This document shows, piece by piece, positions 57,873-63,678 of a stretch of 64,000 nucleotides of DNA. A program made the translations under genes and the position numbers. The first letter of the stretch is position 1. The number at the start of each line of letters is the position of its first letter. The stretch is from a virus, in IMG/VR virus record IMGVR_UViG_3300045988_068596, one strand, 5' to 3'. The notes below the pieces were generated by a model, which saw only the letters and a list, made by a program, of their open reading frames with translations, did no database searches and was not told the origin of the DNA.

Positions 57873-58325
57873 TTGTTGGAAGAGACGGTTTATAATTTTA
57901 TACAAGGCTTAAGCGGGACACAATTAACTATATTAGAAGATACATTTGCTTTACTAGGACTAATCTTTATACTTATAGGAATACATTTTTTAGTAGCAGA
58001 TACAGTTGAATGGGTGAAACTTGTTAGGAATCCAAGAGTATCTACATTTGCAACAATACACATGTATTTTACTTTTTATCTACCGATGTTCATTTTCTTT
58101 TTGGTAGATGGTAGTACGGTTACTACTTTTGTTGTTTCATTACTGCTTTTTGCTGTTGCATATACATGGATTGTATGGCTTCGAGTGGGTAGATACACAG
58201 AAAATTGGTCAGTAGTACGTCCGTTTGTTACCTACATTAAAGCACAAGACCATGTGTGTACGCTAGTTATTGGTTCAGTACTTTTAAGAACAGTACTATT
58301 TTTTATAAAACTTAGGATAGGTTAA
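57873..58325 (+). CDS. Membrane protein (150 aa, ~4 TM).
   Basis: TTG start after RBS taaggagaa. Multiple hydrophobic helices. Confidence 0.45.
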   Translation: MLEETVYNFIQGLSGTQLTILEDTFALLGLIFILIGIHFLVADTVEWVKLVRNPRVSTFATIHMYFTFYLPMFIFFLVDGSTVTTFVVSLLLFAVAYTWIVWLRVGRYTENWSVVRPFVTYIKAQDHVCTLVIGSVLLRTVLFFIKLRIG

Positions 58326-58349
58326 GATAGGATAGGATAGGATGGAGGA
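58313..58349 (+). repeat. GATAGG / UAG-triplet purine repeat array overlapping the stop of the upstream gene and the Shine-Dalgarno of the 58358 gene.
   Basis: Sequence TAGgaTAGgttaagaTAGgaTAGgaTAGgatgGAGgat: six UAG/GAG triplets, mostly 2-nt spaced, ending 8 nt before the ATG. Confidence 0.6.
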
Positions 58350-58357
58350 TAAGATAT

Positions 58358-58918
58358 ATGAATGAAATAATGAGTTATGTTTGGTTGGGTGTATTTATTG
58401 CTATACCCGTAATTGGCTTTATCTATGTATATAATTACAATAGAAAAAATCCACGTTGGTACCTTCGCAAAAGCTACTGGGCGCCACTAGTGCTAGATTT
58501 AGTTGTTTTTGGTGTTTGGGCAATGGTAGGCGTAATTACACTAGCTGTTGGACATACAGAAACTACTACTAAAACATTTAATATTGAACCACTTACGGTT
58601 TATAATTCACCAGAAAATATTTATGCAAAGATAGGTAGCACGGATGACAGCTATGTTAACTTTGCAATTACAGGTAAAGGAACTCACTCTGCACCACTTG
58701 GTAACACTAGTATCCATTACGTTGAGTTCGAAGGTAGACCGAAAGTCACGGTTACTTACTACAAATTAGATTCCTCTTTCTCAGCCTTTATGGGGATGCA
58801 GGGAGAACTTGTAACTAAAAAAACTCGTGTAGATATTCAAGTACCTGTAGGTGGGGTGGATGTCACAAATACAAGTAGTACCTTTGAAGAGCAATCAGTA
58901 AACGATTTACTTAGATAA
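58358..58918 (+). CDS. Membrane-anchored protein (186 aa; N-terminal 2 TM plus a soluble domain). First cassette gene.
   Basis: ATG start. Hydrophobic N-terminus 'VWLGVFIAIPVIGFIYV' and 'LVLDLVVFGVWAMVGVITLAV'. Confidence 0.5.
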   Translation: MNEIMSYVWLGVFIAIPVIGFIYVYNYNRKNPRWYLRKSYWAPLVLDLVVFGVWAMVGVITLAVGHTETTTKTFNIEPLTVYNSPENIYAKIGSTDDSYVNFAITGKGTHSAPLGNTSIHYVEFEGRPKVTVTYYKLDSSFSAFMGMQGELVTKKTRVDIQVPVGGVDVTNTSSTFEEQSVNDLLR

Positions 58919-58922
58919 TTCC

Positions 58923-58963
58923 CTAAGTAGCGGGTTACAAAAATCCGCTAAGTAGCAGGCTAG
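58923..58963 (+). repeat. Two copies of the iteron CTAAGTAGCGGGTTACA / CTAAGTAGCAGGCTAG.
   Basis: Same repeat family as the 7-copy array at 63217-63380. Confidence 0.6.
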
Positions 58964-58992
58964 AGACATCTTTTATAGATGTCTCTTTTTTA
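58961..58992 (+). terminator. Rho-independent terminator.
   Basis: agagacatc-tttta-tagatgtctct followed by tttttta. Confidence 0.7.
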
Positions 58993-59021
58993 TTGACAAA
59001 CCTGTACAGCTATGCTACTAT
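58993..59021 (+). promoter_or_regulatory. Early promoter TTGACA-17-TACTAT (first of a tandem pair).
   Basis: Consensus -35 and -10 elements. Confidence 0.55.
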
Positions 59022-59063
59022 ATACATGTAAATAAAACAAGCTAAAAAATTTGAGCTTACCTA

Positions 59064-59092
59064 TTGACATTAAACAATGTACAGGCTATAAT
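59064..59092 (+). promoter_or_regulatory. Early promoter TATTGACATTAAACAA...TATAAT (second of the tandem pair).
   Basis: TTGACA-17-TATAAT, followed by the conserved GCTTGTAAGATAAA motif. Confidence 0.6.
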
Positions 59093-59126
59093 AAGCTTGT
59101 AAGATAAAACGAAGGAGGAATTTACA

Positions 59127-59363
59127 ATGGAAAAACAAAAACAAGTGATTACAAGAAAACAGTACGAGGAGATTATGGCACGTTATAACAAAATAGACTA
59201 TGCTATCATCGCAGGGTTCATTATCTTTGGCACAGTTATCTTTGGTTTTGGTGGATTTGTCTTTATGGCTATTGTTGGTGCGTTCACGTTCCCACGTATG
59301 AAACAAAAAAGCGTTAATTTAATGGAACAAGACTACATTGTTAGAGATGACATTCAACAGTAA
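59127..59363 (+). CDS. Small membrane protein (78 aa).
   Basis: RBS aaggaggaatttacaATG. Hydrophobic 'IIAGFIIFGTVIFGFGGFVFMAIVGAF'. Confidence 0.45.
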   Translation: MEKQKQVITRKQYEEIMARYNKIDYAIIAGFIIFGTVIFGFGGFVFMAIVGAFTFPRMKQKSVNLMEQDYIVRDDIQQ

Positions 59364-59372
59364 GCTTAATTG

Positions 59373-59401
59373 TTGACTATGAAAATTACAGGTGTTACTA
59401 T
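59373..59401 (+). promoter_or_regulatory. Promoter TTGACT-17-TACTAT.
   Basis: Near-consensus promoter upstream of the XRE-like gene. Confidence 0.5.
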
Positions 59402-59424
59402 AATGGTACAAGGAGGACAAAGAA

Positions 59425-59673
59425 ATGGCAGAAGCAAAAAAGAGCTATTCTGACATGACAGAGGAGGAAGCACAATATGCAATGGTATTAGGTGCTAGAA
59501 TCGCTCATGCACGAGAAGGGTTAGGTATTAGTCAAGGAGAACTAGGTAAGTTAGCAGGTTTCAATCAAACAACTATCTCTTTAATTGAGACAGGTAAACG
59601 GCTACCTAACTTAAAGACCCTTATCAGATTGAGTAAGATTCTTAAAAAAAGTTTGAAAATTACATTGGAATGA
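59425..59673 (+). CDS. XRE/Cro-type helix-turn-helix transcriptional regulator (82 aa).
   Basis: HTH_XRE pattern 'LGARIAHAREGLGISQGELGKLAGFNQTTISLIETGKR'. Confidence 0.6.
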   Translation: MAEAKKSYSDMTEEEAQYAMVLGARIAHAREGLGISQGELGKLAGFNQTTISLIETGKRLPNLKTLIRLSKILKKSLKITLE

Positions 59674-59705
59674 GGTAGAGAAAATAAAACAGGGGGAGAT
59701 TTATT

Positions 59706-60146
59706 ATGACAACGAAAGTAAAAGAAACAAAATCAAAAGTAAAGAATGGTGAACGTACACCGAAGGAATTTGTAGCAGGGATGAAACGTAGTAAGAAAGA
59801 CTTGTCACAAACGCAAGTGGTAACTTCTTTAATGGAAAACTATCCAGAACTTACACCAAAAGACATCCAAGAAATTACAGGTATTAAACGTGGAACTATC
59901 TATACAATCCAAAGTCGTCTACGTAGTGCTCATCGTAAGGAACATACAAAGACCGCAGATACGCCACATATGGATAAAGTAGAGTCTATTAGTGAAACCA
60001 TGAGTCCGGAAGCTATTGGTAAACAAGACTTATTCAATCGTTTAGCTGATGTATACTTAAAGAAGATTGAAGAAACCGAAGATATTGAAGAAGCTAGCAA
60101 ATATAATACGTTACTTATTCAAGTGATGGAAAGCTTAGATAAATGA
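59706..60146 (+). CDS. Hypothetical protein, possibly DNA-binding (146 aa).
   Basis: RBS gggggagatttattATG. HTH-like segment 'IQEITGIKRGTIYTIQSRL'. Confidence 0.35.
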   Translation: MTTKVKETKSKVKNGERTPKEFVAGMKRSKKDLSQTQVVTSLMENYPELTPKDIQEITGIKRGTIYTIQSRLRSAHRKEHTKTADTPHMDKVESISETMSPEAIGKQDLFNRLADVYLKKIEETEDIEEASKYNTLLIQVMESLDK

Positions 60147-60236
60147 TAGCAGGATTCTATTTATATAATTTAAGAGTCCTGATTCTACCGTATATTTAAC
60201 AGGAATGTGCGGTAGAATTTTATTTACATAAACCTA

Positions 60237-60265
60237 TTGACAATAAACAATAAATAGGATACTAT
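60237..60265 (+). promoter_or_regulatory. Early promoter TATTGACAATAAACAA-TACTAT followed by ATACATGTAAGATAAA.
   Basis: Conserved early promoter family. Confidence 0.6.
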
Positions 60266-60298
60266 ATACATGTAAGATAAATATAGGGAGATGTTTAA

Positions 60299-61045
60299 AT
60301 GCAAACAGAAACTAAAAATTTTGAAGTTATACGTAAGACAGATGATTTAATTTATTATCACTTTGCAAAAGAAAGTAGCTACGCTATCAGTAAGGTAGAT
60401 AAACAAGAGTGGGAAGAGGCAATGACTGAGTATGTGAATGATTTTCTTGAACAGGCTTACGGAAACATTCCACCTATTTCAGTGTATATTAACTCTAGGC
60501 TTTCTAGAACATTAGGTTGGTTTCAATATTATTTGAAAGACAAGGATAAACCTCCATATATTGAAGTAAGTAGCAGGCTAGTAAAAAGTGCGATTCTACT
60601 CACAGGTACTGAGCACAAGGAACTTGCATACACAGTAATTAACGACCTGTTAAGACATGAAGCTATTCACTATGCGTTGTATGTACTAGATAAACCTTCT
60701 AGTGATGGAGACGATACTTTTGAGAAAGACTTGTTTGTAACAGGGACATCCCCTAGCCTAAGTACACCAGAGTATAAAGTATATAAAAACGAGTTTCCTA
60801 GACTACTATGTAAATACTATGCAAAGTGTCCTGTATGCGATACTGTGCTTGCTTATGAGACCAGAGGACGTTACTATTGTATTCATAGATGTGTAGAAGA
60901 GGGGAAAACACATCCAGTCATCTTTAGACCTAAGAATGAATTAATCATTGGGGTACAGCCCCACGTATCTTACGGGAGAAAACTACTGGAAGGAACATAT
61001 GATGGAGCAGTTAAAGAATCTTACAGAAAGGGGATAGTTAACTAA
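60299..61045 (+). CDS. SprT-like zinc metalloprotease domain protein.
   Basis: HExxH motif 'RHEAIHYALY' plus the C-terminal zinc ribbon 'CPVCDTV...CIHRC'. Confidence 0.45.
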   Translation: MQTETKNFEVIRKTDDLIYYHFAKESSYAISKVDKQEWEEAMTEYVNDFLEQAYGNIPPISVYINSRLSRTLGWFQYYLKDKDKPPYIEVSSRLVKSAILLTGTEHKELAYTVINDLLRHEAIHYALYVLDKPSSDGDDTFEKDLFVTGTSPSLSTPEYKVYKNEFPRLLCKYYAKCPVCDTVLAYETRGRYYCIHRCVEEGKTHPVIFRPKNELIIGVQPHVSYGRKLLEGTYDGAVKESYRKGIVN

Positions 61046-61590
61046 TGGAAGTTAAAATAGACTTAACATCGGGTACAGCTACAGTTATTTTTAATGATAG
61101 TCCTACAGCAATAATAGAAAAATATCGTCATTCTATCTCATATGATGAAGTAAGTAATTACCGTAAAAGAGGGCATACAGTTTACTACGCTAACCCTGAG
61201 TATCGAGACCCCTACGTACTTAAAGATAAAGTTGTAGGTTCCAATTGGAAAGAATACATTGATAGCATGAATGAATTGCGGGAACAAATTACTCTAGCAG
61301 AGAACATAGGTATTACAGTCACAAATAAGGAAAGCTATGAAAAAGTATACAAACGAGCTTTAAAACAGTATGCACAGTTACTAGAAAAAGGAAAGCAAGA
61401 AAATAAACACAGACGTTTAATTAAGTTACTCTCTTCTCAGGACTACGAAACTTTAGTAACTTTAATAGAAACAGCTTCTTGGCATCTGTTAGACCACTAC
61501 GAGTACGAACATGCACCAATCCCACCGAAGGAGCAAGCTGTTATTGACATAAAAACTAAGTGGGATACAATAAGTAGAATAGAGGGATAA
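61045..61590 (+). CDS. Hypothetical protein (181 aa).
   Basis: ATG overlaps the upstream stop (TAATG). Confidence 0.4.
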   Translation: MEVKIDLTSGTATVIFNDSPTAIIEKYRHSISYDEVSNYRKRGHTVYYANPEYRDPYVLKDKVVGSNWKEYIDSMNELREQITLAENIGITVTNKESYEKVYKRALKQYAQLLEKGKQENKHRRLIKLLSSQDYETLVTLIETASWHLLDHYEYEHAPIPPKEQAVIDIKTKWDTISRIEG

Positions 61591-61608
61591 TATTTCCCTC
61601 TAAAATTT
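61581..61608 (+). terminator. Terminator-like hairpin agaggga-taatattt-ccctct followed by aaaattt.
   Basis: Stem-loop overlapping the gene end. Weak T-run. Confidence 0.35.
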
Positions 61609-61619
61609 AAACATATCTA

Positions 61620-61648
61620 TTGACAATAAACAATAGAAGAGTTATACT
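61620..61648 (+). promoter_or_regulatory. Early promoter TATTGACAATAAACAA-TATACT.
   Basis: Conserved early promoter family. Confidence 0.6.
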
Positions 61649-61674
61649 ATGTATGAAGATAAGGAAAGGGAGAG

Positions 61675-62007
61675 ATGAAAATGTTAAACTTTAATAAACA
61701 CGTAACAGCAGAAGATATTATCAGAGATGGAGAATACAATGATGCAGTTGTAGAACATATTATTGGAGAACTTGAAACAAGTGATAAGAAAAAATTAGCT
61801 CTATTCAAACAATGGATTGCAGACAAAAAAGAAGATGGAGACACGGAAGCTGTTGAATACTTTAAAGGTATGACAGACAAAGAAATTTTGGTTTACATGG
61901 ACTTAGACGAAATTGTAGAATACTATGAAGAAACAGGTCTTGCAGACTTTGCAGATAGTTTAGACATTGACTGGACAGGTTTACTAGAAAGCTTTGGAGT
62001 AGAATAG
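61675..62007 (+). CDS. Small acidic protein (110 aa).
   Basis: RBS aaagggagagATG. Confidence 0.4.
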   Translation: MKMLNFNKHVTAEDIIRDGEYNDAVVEHIIGELETSDKKKLALFKQWIADKKEDGDTEAVEYFKGMTDKEILVYMDLDEIVEYYEETGLADFADSLDIDWTGLLESFGVE

Positions 62008-62018
62008 GGGGAACCAAC

Positions 62019-62663
62019 TTGAACACAGAAAACAGAGTAAGAAGAGGGAGACCTCGTAAATATCCAGAGGGAGCTAAACGGGTAGACAATACAAGTTTGA
62101 TAGTCACAAAGAAACAAAAAGAATACATTGGTAATATCGCAAAGTTAAACAAGGAAACAGTAAAAGAGACAAGTAACAGGCTACTAAAAGAAGTTTTAGA
62201 TGGCAAGTTTGATTACTTGTTAACACCTATTGTAGAAGAAGATGTACCATCTGTGCCAGTAACAGTGGATAGGAAGTTGACACATGAGGTACAGAAGTAT
62301 TTAGAGGGTTACAACGAGAATGCTTCGGAAGTAATACGGAAAATAGTGGAGGAGTTTATGATTATGACAGACAGAACACTGAAAGTAGTTGGGGGTTACG
62401 AACTGGGGGTAACTTCCATTACAAAAGAGCTTAAACGATTTTGGTTGAAACCTACAGAGGAAGCAGAAGAAAATATGTTCTTTATGGATGCCTCCATTCA
62501 ACTAGATGTGGATAACCGACATGTAGTCATTCGTGAAAAATCTATGGGTGTCCGCTCAATCAGTCAAATGGAAGAGCTTAAACGCTACAAAGACCAACTG
62601 ATAGAGACAGCTTCACAATTACAGGATGCACTGGATACTTACGTTGCGAAACATTTAGGATAA
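62019..62663 (+). CDS. AT-hook-containing protein (214 aa).
   Basis: N-terminal 'RVRRGRPRKYPEG' matches the AT-hook core RGRP. TTG start with RBS tagggggaacc. Confidence 0.4.
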   Translation: MNTENRVRRGRPRKYPEGAKRVDNTSLIVTKKQKEYIGNIAKLNKETVKETSNRLLKEVLDGKFDYLLTPIVEEDVPSVPVTVDRKLTHEVQKYLEGYNENASEVIRKIVEEFMIMTDRTLKVVGGYELGVTSITKELKRFWLKPTEEAEENMFFMDASIQLDVDNRHVVIREKSMGVRSISQMEELKRYKDQLIETASQLQDALDTYVAKHLG

Positions 62664-62770
62664 ACTTTTAGGATATAGGATAGGATAAACAGGATAGGAT
62701 GCGTTTAGGATAGGATAAGATAGGATAAGATTCACTTAGGATAGGATAGGATGAAAGGAGACAGGATATA
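62654..62770 (+). repeat. Long GGATAGGATA / UAG-triplet purine repeat array (~11 UAG triplets) spanning the stop of the 62019 gene through the Shine-Dalgarno of the 62771 gene.
   Basis: Sequence ttTAGgataTAGgaTAGgataaacaggaTAGgatgcgttTAGgaTAGgataagaTAGgataagattcactTAGgaTAGgaTAGgatgaaaggag. Confidence 0.6.
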
Positions 62771-63220
62771 ATGTTAAGTACAGCAGAATATGATTCACTT
62801 AGAGAGTATTTAGTAGCCGTAATTCATAACCAAATTAGTGAGGATGAGAGAGACACACAAAGCTTAGACGTATGGAAGGAAGAGGTTGACAAGCTGACAG
62901 TAGACAATTGGAGAGAACGTTGCATAAACCTAGCAGATTTGTTATATGTAGATACTCCCGCTTCACTGGCAGACATTTACAAAGATTATAAAGAGGAGCT
63001 AAACGAAATACTCAGAGATTACACAGATGAGCTACGTGCAGGAGCTACGTTCAATAAGGTAGCTGACGAGCGCCTAGGGTGGATGTGGGAAGACTATGAC
63101 CCATTAATACTAGAAGCACATAATCAAGGTCTAGTGGCTCGTTTAGGGCTTCTAATCGTTGCTGAACAACTTGCTACTCAATTAGAACAAGGGACGTTTA
63201 CAATACCATATGATAACTAA
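62771..63220 (+). CDS. Second cassette gene: soluble acidic protein (149 aa).
   Basis: RBS aaaggagacaggatataATG. Confidence 0.45.
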   Translation: MLSTAEYDSLREYLVAVIHNQISEDERDTQSLDVWKEEVDKLTVDNWRERCINLADLLYVDTPASLADIYKDYKEELNEILRDYTDELRAGATFNKVADERLGWMWEDYDPLILEAHNQGLVARLGLLIVAEQLATQLEQGTFTIPYDN

Positions 63221-63380
63221 GTAACAGGCTAGCCTAAGTAGCAGGCTAGCTTTTTTCTTCTAAGTAGCAGGTTAGCTAAAATCTTCTAAGTAACGGGCTA
63301 CAGTAAAAAAACTCTAAGTAGCGGGCTACAAAAATCCTCTAAGTAGCGGGCTACAAAAATCCTCTAAGTAGCGGGCTACA
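63217..63380 (+). repeat. Array of seven ~16-17-bp iterons (consensus CTAAGTAGCGGGCTACA) with a ~25-bp period and conserved AAAATCCTC spacers in the 3' copies.
   Basis: Copies at 63217, 63234, 63261, 63287, 63315, 63340 and 63365. Each contains the palindrome GTAGC-GG-GCTAC. Confidence 0.7.
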
Positions 63381-63519
63381 AACAGCTTATAAAATCCCGA
63401 GGCATACCATCCGACAACCAGACCCGTCACCTTTGCCCGTTCAATATGCCACCACTTAAACCCATTTTTTTTCTTATATATAGAAGAAAAAAGTTTTTCA
63501 TCTTTTTTAGTGTTTTCTA

Positions 63520-63548
63520 TTGACATTAAGAAATAGGCATGATATAGT
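63520..63548 (+). promoter_or_regulatory. Early promoter TTGACA-17-TATAGT, followed by an RBS-like aaaggag with no ORF.
   Basis: First of tandem promoters upstream of the 63679 gene. Confidence 0.5.
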
Positions 63549-63606
63549 ATAGACAGTTAAAGAAAGGAGAAACAAAAAAATAAATAAAAAAATTTAAAAA
63601 AAGTTA

Positions 63607-63635
63607 TTGACATTAAACAATAAACACTATATAAT
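63607..63635 (+). promoter_or_regulatory. Early promoter TATTGACATTAAACAA-TATAAT followed by AAACATGTAAGATAAA.
   Basis: Conserved early promoter family. Confidence 0.6.
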
Positions 63636-63678
63636 AAACATGTAAGATAAATAAGACAAAAGAAAGAGGGAACTAAAA

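Follow-up and report, generated by a model that had tools for sequence, protein, structure and literature searches.

Seven short direct repeats in the early region of an Enterococcus phage form an array that is probably a cis-acting DNA element, a tandem set of putative sites in one orientation for a sequence-specific DNA-binding protein. The array lies in IMG/VR virus record IMGVR_UViG_3300045988_068596, of which we analyzed a stretch of 64,000 nucleotides (nt), referred to here as the window. Comparison across related phages indicates that the asymmetric 9-mer CTAAGTAGC, which makes up the 5' half of the unit, is the only universally conserved piece, with a 3' half that is genus specific. 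The array itself is one part of a composite noncoding early-region element of the non-SPO1 Herelleviridae. Since the core is found in the same setting in phages of Enterococcus, Listeria, and Staphylococcus, we regard it as a probable protein-binding DNA control site.

The array is real and nonrandom. A first-pass annotation made from the sequence alone had described seven direct repeats downstream of the gene at 62771-63220 (here, gene X), two more copies behind the gene at 58358-58918, and early promoters following the array. We recovered all of these: seven + strand units, co-oriented with transcription, that start at 63217, 63234, 63260, 63286, 63314, 63339, and 63364 (spacings of 17, 26, 26, 28, 25, and 25 bp); two units at 58923 and 58948; and promoter-like sites at 63520 and 63607, the first of them 140 bp past the array. 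Tandem Repeats Finder (TRF) scores the 25-bp array at 163, and a degenerate 15-mer matches the window 11 times versus 0.96 expected, a count reached in 0 of 100 shuffles. The array begins within a stop codon, as the TAA that ends gene X (63218-63220) is also the TAA of CTAAG in unit 1. The observation was confirmed apart from one statement, namely, that every repeat carries the palindrome GTAGC-GG-GCTAC. The palindrome (GTAGCGGGCTAC) is exact only in units 5 to 7, or three of the seven, while unit 4 reads GTAACGGGCTAC and units 1 to 3 read GTARCAGGYTAGC. Units 5 to 7 are identical 25-bp copies and represent the portion of the array with changing copy number. The spacers between units are 1 to 12 bp long, A-rich, and themselves repeated; we rejected a CRISPR-like array, which needs repeats of 24 to 40 bp and unique spacers of similar length.

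Thirty-four Enterococcus phage records, all of the genus Schiekvirus (Herelleviridae, Brockvirinae), align with the last 2 kb of the window at 83 to 97% identity (best matches, GVEsP-1, ZJGS3, and EA1), and by sequence the window is assigned to an Enterococcus myophage of this genus. Both the main array and the minor site behind the 58358 gene are present in 14 of 14 Schiekvirus loci, and one further partial contig carries the main array only. The main array has 5 to 8 units in these loci, with the first two units and unit 3 fixed, and the change in copy number resides in the 25-bp unit CTAAGTAGCRGGCTACAAAAATCCT. The minor site has 2 or 3 units in the relatives. A position matrix built from the 115 units of the 14 loci shows C-TAAGTA-C-GG-TA as invariant, with variable spacers: 12 of the 16 core positions are essentially invariant, and the rest comprise three positions with transitions only and a 3'-terminal base that is C or G. 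All five arm pairs of the palindrome stem are intact in 51 of these 115 units. The stem is broken in the other 64, with A-C mismatches in 28, G-G mismatches in 54, and no double-sided compensations.

The sister arrangement in Kochikohdavirus consists of a (TAGGA)n block, a gene for an acidic protein of 148 amino acids (aa) that is a homologue of gene X at 24 to 25% identity, a terminator, and then units of the form CTAAGTAGCAGGTTGCAAAATCCY. The unit count is 4 for phiEF24C, 14 for Riverwalk, approximately 16 for phage 156, and 11 or more for KEN11, and in all of these the palindrome is changed (GTAGCAGGTTGC) and the DNA palindrome is lost. The check on conservation and copy number proposed in the first-pass annotation thus found the array in every relative examined. 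The nucleotide sequence of the repeats has been retained despite the divergence of the enclosed gene, and the core is evidently under purifying selection.

Further from the window, the 9-mer persists in the equivalent early or terminal-repeat region, with 5 copies versus 0.10 expected in Listeria phage A511 and 4 copies versus 0.07 expected in Staphylococcus phage K. A511 and P100 (Jasinskavirinae) carry (TAGGA)n at a gene stop codon, including a perfect (TAGGA)14 at the gp171 stop, and beyond it approximately 0.7 kb of noncoding DNA with 5 or 6 dispersed copies of CTAAGTAGC, G-rich and A+T-rich segments, and strong promoters. In Kayvirus (phages K, MCE-2014, and Stab20), the long terminal repeat contains a TAGGA-rich leader, two small genes, four copies of CTAAGTAGCTCYC, the first of which touches or contains a stop codon, and a TATATA palindrome. 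The Twort-like contig IMGVR_UViG_3300012308_000002 holds at least 10 copies of CTAAGTAGC on one strand over 3.3 kb of its Tre-gene region. Two of these sit exactly in the 17-bp spacer of TTGATT/TTGTAT-N17-TATAAT promoters (CTAAGTAG(C/T)CATGATATAAT). In the same contig, two adjacent copies bearing GTAGCTAC form an intrinsic terminator. The 12-bp palindrome does not qualify as the core that it had been taken for, being imperfect in most units, altered in Kochikohdavirus, and absent in the Staphylococcus phages (GTAGCTCCCT).

The distribution has clear limits. The first 20 kb of SPO1 contain neither (TAGGA)n nor the CTAAGTAGC motif. Among the 120 matches listed in a scan of 185,579 host genomes, there were only single scattered ones, as chance predicts, and no arrays. 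We also rejected a universal phage motif, as paired CTAAGTAGC (10 to 40 nt apart) occurs at 45 loci in IMG/VR versus 34 and at least 120 loci for control 9-mers, and the pairs show no enrichment in IMG/VR outside the Herelleviridae. Searching the literature for the motif string yielded no paper on a phage; the accessible literature mentions only TAGGA repeats (PMC12282133 and PMC6445280). No transcriptome of an Enterococcus Brockvirinae phage was found.

The composite of which the array is a part, and which the first-pass annotation had overlooked, has a recurring order: a (TAGGA)n block, an optional gene for a small acidic protein, the repeats with the CTAAGTAGC core, a G+C-rich spacer, a TATATA palindrome, and strong sigma-A promoters. 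The window contains every part of this composite as we define it, on the early-gene strand (Table 1). The + strand carries essentially all large open reading frames (ORFs) of the window, and from approximately 55 kb onward short operons follow one another in series, with near-consensus sigma-A promoter-like sites and hairpin terminators, a layout that we read as an early-region pattern. Both genes trailed by units have a degenerate (TAGGA)n block in front of them, and TAGGATAGGAT has 12 matches versus 1.16 expected. A (TAGGA)n block also precedes the gene X homologue in Kochikohdavirus and gp007 in phage K, and its perfect form is the (TAGGA)14 of A511. A TATATA-centered palindrome 45 to 125 bp past the last unit is likewise found in phiEF24C, A511, and phage K. 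In the window the G+C fraction drops to 0.14 to 0.25 at 63460-63660. The spacer before that drop has a G+C fraction of 0.46 to 0.48 and a GC skew of -0.47, versus about +0.2 to +0.4 in its flanks, and a G+C-rich segment of different sequence occupies the equivalent position in Kochikohdavirus, A511, and phage K.

Table 1. Repeat units and associated elements in the window (coordinates are window positions)
Feature	Position	Strand	Description
Main array	63217-63379	+	Seven units, consensus CTAAGTA[AG]C[AG]GG[CT]TA
Units 1 and 2 with T-run	63217-63259	+	CTAAGTAACAGGCTAGC and CTAAGTAGCAGGCTAGC, 17 bp apart; predicted intrinsic terminator of gene X
Units 3 to 7	63260-63379	+	After the terminator; 16-bp core CTAAGTARCRGGYTA(C/G) plus A-rich spacer ending in ATCC(T)
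Minor site	58923-58963	+	Two units, CTAAGTAGCGGGTTAC and CTAAGTAGCAGGCTAG; 4 nt past the stop of the gene at 58358-58918
Degenerate (TAGGA/TAAGA)n pentamer block	62649-62752	+	Directly upstream of gene X; TRF periods of 5 and 31
Second (TAGGA)n block	58313-58356	+	Directly upstream of the 58358 gene, whose 3' flank has the minor site
Gene X	62771-63220	+	149 aa, acidic (pI 4.2), predicted all-helical; between the (TAGGA)n block and the array
G+C-rich, C-skewed spacer	63380-63464	+	85 bp, between the array and the A+T-rich segment
A+T-only inverted repeat, TATATA centered	63465-63493		TTTTTTCTTATATATAGAAGAAAAAA; read in the sequence, helix in both folds
Two strong sigma-A-type promoter-like sites	63520-63635	+	TTGACA-17-TATAGT (63520, 11/12) and TTGACA-17-TATAAT (63607, 12/12); next small early genes
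Single motif copy	60566-60580	+	GTAAGTAGCAGGCTA; within the SprT-like coding sequence; significance uncertain; broken by a synonymous change in ZJGS3
Single motif copy	62169-62183	+	ACAAGTAACAGGCTA; within the ribbon-helix-helix/AT-hook coding sequence; significance uncertain; kept in ZJGS3

The first two units double as the intrinsic terminator of gene X, a role that had been missed in the first-pass annotation. Both end in GCTAGC, and together they form a terminator-like hairpin at 63226-63252 (10 pairs with a 7-nt loop, followed by TTTTCTTCTA) that is the main helix in both the minimum free energy and centroid folds. The terminator is kept in 14 of 14 Schiekvirus loci, and the phage 113 record annotates a "terminator" at the equivalent position. 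Only these two units of the array provide a G+C-containing hairpin followed by a U-run at the 3' end of a transcription unit. The minor site is placed differently, just 5' of the terminator at 58962-58986, and its units precede the -35 box of the 58993 promoter-like site by 30 to 70 bp. It lies upstream of the promoters of an operon that encodes XRE and helix-turn-helix (HTH) regulators. The two single copies within coding sequences share the same orientation and codon register, and both encode S-[SN]-R-L-[VL]-K; by our own estimate, approximately 0.015 such matches are expected by chance.

Several further properties of the neighboring elements are of note. The (TAGGA)n blocks of the window start at the 3' end of the preceding ORF (the ORF at 57873-58325 ends in ...KLRIG*, reading into the block), and all three frames of these blocks hold TAG stops; AGGA sequences that resemble Shine-Dalgarno (SD) sites are numerous in them. 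Gene X matches no Pfam family and belongs to phrog_17103, of unknown function; its sequence homologues are confined to close relatives. Its AlphaFold model has a low-confidence predicted local distance difference test score of 49, which is too poor for a fold search. The G+C-rich spacer is C-rich with inverted skew in a genome whose + strand is otherwise G-rich, and at least two diverged variants of it exist among the Schiekvirus relatives, with no conserved ORF or fold found in it. We rejected a conserved minus-strand ORF under the spacer, as it has no SD sequence and the Kochikohdavirus ORF at that place is different and shorter.

The units could act as DNA or as RNA. At the RNA level, they could serve as 3' untranslated or read-through hairpins, or as linear sites for an RNA-binding protein or ribonuclease, and set the stability or processing of early mRNA together with the SD-like (UAGGA)n leader. 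The coding strand indeed carries every copy, and in both Schiekvirus and Kayvirus the first unit touches or contains a stop codon. Units 1 and 2 also act as an RNA hairpin in the terminator. The minor site and the phage K array precede terminators and are therefore transcribed, and the 3'-arm changes in Kochikohdavirus and Listeria phages (C to T and A to G) retain G-U pairs. SP82 early RNAs use polypurine 5' stabilizers, which also speaks for a role of this kind. However, units 3 to 7 and all Kochikohdavirus and Listeria units lie beyond a terminator, and the position of the array relative to terminators differs among loci and genera. The hairpin is marginal (4 bp), broken in most Schiekvirus units as counted above, and absent in the Staphylococcus units. 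The region at 63200-63500 folds with unremarkable z-scores (-1.3 on the + strand and -0.65 on the - strand), and Rfam gave no match at the gathering score and only noise at E<10. With these results, no covariation, and fewer than half of the stems kept, we rejected a known RNA family or a structured RNA. Pairing between the (UAGGA)n leader and the array, where ATCCT complements AGGAT, gave duplex energies within the shuffle distributions in three phages. Finally, the homologous 1.2-kb zone of Listeria phage CKA15 is described as a relative transcriptional dead zone by RNA-seq and cappable-seq, and this near silence weighs further against a role in RNA (PMC12282133). We consider an RNA-level element improbable. 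The balance of this evidence suggests that function at the DNA level is clearly favored, and a DNA-level protein-binding role of the array seems fairly likely to us. The first-pass annotation had proposed an origin or a regulator-binding role, and its general direction stands in that conserved, oriented repeats fit protein binding to DNA better than they fit chance or RNA; its choice of the palindrome as the site does not.

As a more specific function, we tentatively propose that the array is an operator or boundary that controls or insulates the flanking early transcription units of the host RNA polymerase. We slightly favor this early-transcription role over origin iterons, and the two are not mutually exclusive. 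A binding protein, probably phage encoded, would load on CTAAGTAGC and oligomerize along the array, and the bound array would then shut off or fence the early promoters. Four observations count for regulation: the copies in promoter spacers of the Twort-like contig; the minor site upstream of the XRE/HTH operon promoters; the strong early promoters 130 to 170 bp downstream of the arrays in Schiekvirus, Kochikohdavirus, and the Listeria phages; and plasmid pCBA710401, which has kept precisely the units, promoters, small membrane protein, and XRE gene.

That plasmid, a conjugative Inc18-type plasmid of Enterococcus faecium, carries its Schiekvirus fragment beside IS256 (NZ_CP025687.1, approximately 131.9 to 133.1 kb). 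The fragment retains the minor site: it comprises the 3' part of a membrane-protein gene, two units, a terminator, tandem promoters, and the genes for the XRE regulator and a membrane protein of 78 aa. One possibility is that the plasmid has captured a phage repressor or decoy module that acts against these phages.

A substantial set of observations weighs against the operator or boundary role. No local DNA-binding gene (XRE, HTH, or ribbon-helix-helix [RHH]) co-occurs with the motif across genera, and no candidate binder could be linked to the array. XRE homologues were not detected in the motif-carrying Listeria phages, most relatives with the array have an unrelated 162-aa gene in place of the RHH/AT-hook gene at 62019, and phage 156 has approximately 16 units even though its XRE protein is truncated to 62 aa and the other local regulator genes are absent in the region read. 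The main array sits 140 bp from the nearest promoter without overlapping it, and no promoter spacer of the window contains a full motif. The evidence from promoter spacers is limited to a single distant relative and to consensus scans. With a period of 25 bp, successive units fall out of helical phase, an unusual arrangement for cooperative binding on one face of the helix, and the free variation in copy number, from 4 to approximately 16, implies that dose is not critical. The contact with the stop codon, the constant co-orientation, and the wobble-compatible changes in Kochikohdavirus and Listeria phages also keep a role in RNA alive.

The 62019-62663 gene has features of its own. It encodes a 214-aa protein with an N-terminal RGRPRK AT-hook and, by eye, two successive RHH-like segments, and could therefore be a single-chain pseudo-dimer. 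In addition to the in-frame repeat motif at 62169, the gene contains a perfect DnaA box on the - strand (62507). The unrelated gene that fills this slot in most relatives is annotated as HTH or "transposase."

The strongest competitor to early-transcription control is a replication origin, in which the units would be iterons for a phage initiator, the G+C-rich spacer and TATATA palindrome would form the unwinding region, and transcription from the adjacent promoters could help activation. The array has two features expected of an iteron cluster, which should have at least three noncoding direct repeats of about 17 to 22 bp in one orientation and an A+T-rich unwinding region beside them: here, seven units with a 16-bp core and an A+T-rich region (63460-63660) across the 85-bp spacer. 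This layout of direct repeats, spacer, and A+T-rich inverted repeat beside strong promoters recurs in four genera. Cloned origins of lactococcal phages confer "phage-encoded resistance," and the two units on the E. faecium plasmid would resemble such a case. The CKA15 authors themselves propose an origin in the homologous, nearly untranscribed Listeria zone (PMC12282133). However, no initiator is adjacent: the neighboring proteins lack Rep, O, DnaD, and primase-type families in Pfam and PHROGs, and gene X is acidic. DnaA boxes are not enriched (15 versus 21 expected), and the 25-bp spacing is not the usual two-turn spacing of iterons. The Twort-like phage scatters its copies, at least 10 of them, over several intergenic regions that include promoter spacers, unlike a single origin. 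A complete Kochikohdavirus genome shows no switch in GC skew at the array, a result that is uninformative on the origin because skew follows gene orientation and transcription. The putative origin of phage K has been placed by others between gp190 and gp191 (PMC9241854), and the published origin proposals in Herelleviridae are all inferences, not mappings. On this evidence we hold an origin to be unlikely, though far from negligible.

A partition centromere of the parC, parS, or tubC type was also considered and finds no support among the ten proteins encoded at 57873-63220. The first-pass annotation had stated that the window has no partition NTPase gene; among these ten proteins, the set that was scanned against Pfam and PHROGs, this is borne out, with no ParA, ParM, or TubZ family detected. 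The phage is, moreover, a lytic phage with terminal repeats.

The freely varying copy number invites another explanation, namely, that an ancestral two-unit terminator gave rise to a minisatellite. The other units would have expanded by slippage or unequal recombination and been kept similar by concerted evolution. Beyond termination, the array would then have no dedicated function, except perhaps to offer a patch of homology where modules can be exchanged. Homogenized units (units 5 to 7 here, and the 14 to 16 units of Riverwalk and phage 156), assemblies that break within the array, and mosaic junctions that coincide with the (TAGGA)n block and the end of the array all agree with this explanation, as do the unit pairs that make terminators in both Schiekvirus and the Twort-like phage. 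A gene duplication bordered by TAGGAT has also been reported in Kayvirus (PMC6445280). Slippage nevertheless fails to explain a 9-mer kept in three subfamilies and three host genera while the enclosed genes diverged beyond recognition. Nor does it account for the motif at a second locus of the window, for the dispersed nontandem copies in A511, or for those in the Twort-like promoter spacers. We judge such a minisatellite to be quite improbable, slightly more so than an RNA-level element.

The genome records illustrate these breaks and exchanges. Both ends of the KEN11 record (PP582184.1) lie within the repeat array, a sign that the assembly broke where the repeat exceeded the read length. The matches of KEN16 and Sw5 begin at or within approximately 12 bp of the record start, as judged by BLAST coordinates only. 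Phage 156 (LR031359.1, 97.9 to 100.7 kb), classed as a Kochikohdavirus, has both framed genes in their Schiekvirus-type form. Its gene X protein is 98% identical to that of the window, which shows a recent transfer between genera whose junctions coincide with the repeat elements. The array of approximately 16 units in this phage is annotated as a coding sequence, PHI156_116, with the repeat peptide QNPLSSRL. In iF6 (MT909815.1, 148078-148641), an HNH homing-endonuclease gene on the opposite strand lies immediately upstream of gene X, at a spot where other Schiekviruses have only a variable gene and the (TAGGA)n block.

A function at the genome end would make the array a terminase recognition site, a boundary of the terminal repeat, or an injection-stop signal, as in T5, at the inner limit of the first-entering DNA. 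The terminal repeat of T5 has a repeat-rich noncoding injection-stop region. In all genera, the array lies 5.5 to 10.6 kb from the right end, and in Kayvirus it lies within the long terminal repeat. A variable 35-bp tandem repeat has been described in Kayvirus exactly where the unit genome meets the terminal repeat (PMC6445280), and we find that it contains CTACTAAGTACC. In phage K (KF766114.1, approximately 139.7 to 139.83 kb), this junction repeat with CTACTAAGTACC is accompanied by the palindromic TAAGTAGCTACTTA approximately 350 bp into the terminal repeat, and both may be relatives of the array core at the genome end. The ends of iF6 were mapped experimentally and comprise 2,108-bp terminal repeats (PMC10054541). 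Here 5.2 kb separates the array from the right repeat downstream of it, the corresponding distance in Porthos is 4.5 kb to the annotated repeat, and the iF6 repeat boundaries are without the motif. This distance and the motif-free boundaries do not support a terminal-repeat or packaging role in Schiekvirus, and a terminase recognition, repeat-boundary, or pac site is largely refuted in this genus. Sigma-A-type promoter-like sites, presumably early, also continue for at least 8 kb upstream of the array, which is therefore not the edge of the early region. We consider a genome-end function very improbable.

Taken as a whole, the composite could be one ancient cis-acting machine of the Twortvirinae, Brockvirinae, and Jasinskavirinae, a replication origin or a master switch of the early region bound by a core phage protein, a view that is speculative and, in our estimate, unlikely. 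If it is true, the hypervariable repeat number would tune early expression or replication and hence host range. Schiekvirus, Kochikohdavirus, the P100/A511-like phages of Listeria, and the K-like phages of Staphylococcus are the main therapeutic and biocontrol myophages against Gram-positive pathogens, and both their replication origins and the switch that shuts off early transcription by the host RNA polymerase are still unmapped. A motif kept across three subfamilies amid gene turnover offers bait for its binder, a target for origin testing, and a handle for phage engineering. There are practical consequences as well: assemblies break at the array, with the KEN11 and KEN16 records starting at or within it, and the phage 156 record misannotates it as a gene. 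Recombination junctions, among them those of a transfer between genera, are marked by the array and the (TAGGA)n blocks together, and the two units beside a phage repressor gene on the E. faecium plasmid may point to a natural antiphage device.

The closest published counterpart is the dead zone of CKA15, which contains (TAGGA)27 and (TAGGA)33 downstream of CKA15_188 and, compared via A511 and P100, is homologous to the composite by synteny and sequence; the accessible part of that report describes the TAGGA repeats and an A+T-rich segment only, not CTAAGTAGC (PMC12282133). The Listeria phages differ from the window in that no gene separates the two repeat types, CTAAGTAGC occurs as scattered, not tandem, copies, and (TAGGA)n forms a microsatellite that is long and perfect. 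The TAGGAT clusters of Kayvirus are the same element as the (TAGGA)n blocks of the window, and the CTAAGTA of the array core is also part of the Kayvirus 35-bp repeat, whose copy number varies as well. That repeat abuts the terminal repeat, unlike the Schiekvirus array, and its authors treat recombination and packaging, not protein binding at CTAAGTAGC (PMC6445280). Within the accessible literature, the TAGGA repeats have been published previously (PMC12282133 and PMC6445280), and we found no description of the CTAAGTAGC arrays.

Iteron origins (lambda ori, P1 oriR, SPP1 oriL, and those of lactococcal and streptococcal phages) resemble the array in their noncoding repeats of 16 to 25 bp in one orientation, in the adjoining A+T-rich inverted repeat and strong promoters, and in a second, smaller cluster elsewhere in the genome. 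The array departs from them in having no adjacent initiator gene, unenriched DnaA boxes, an out-of-phase 25-bp period, a copy number of 4 to approximately 16, and a Twort-like relative whose copies are scattered in promoters. Terminator and fork-barrier arrays (the Sal-box/TTF-I sites of mouse ribosomal DNA, Tus-Ter, and RTP-Ter) share oriented, asymmetric tandem sites behind the 3' end of a transcription unit. This is pure analogy, and to our knowledge no protein-bound array of this kind is known in phages of Bacillota. Compared with operator arrays, such as the 7 to 10 heptads bound by omega of pSM19035 or the scattered asymmetric operators of P1 C1, the units here are far longer and more widely spaced than heptads, and the main array overlaps no promoter and has no assigned repressor. 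It resembles them, however, in its asymmetric tandem sites upstream of promoters, in the copies inside promoter spacers in one relative, and in the regulator genes that lie nearby.

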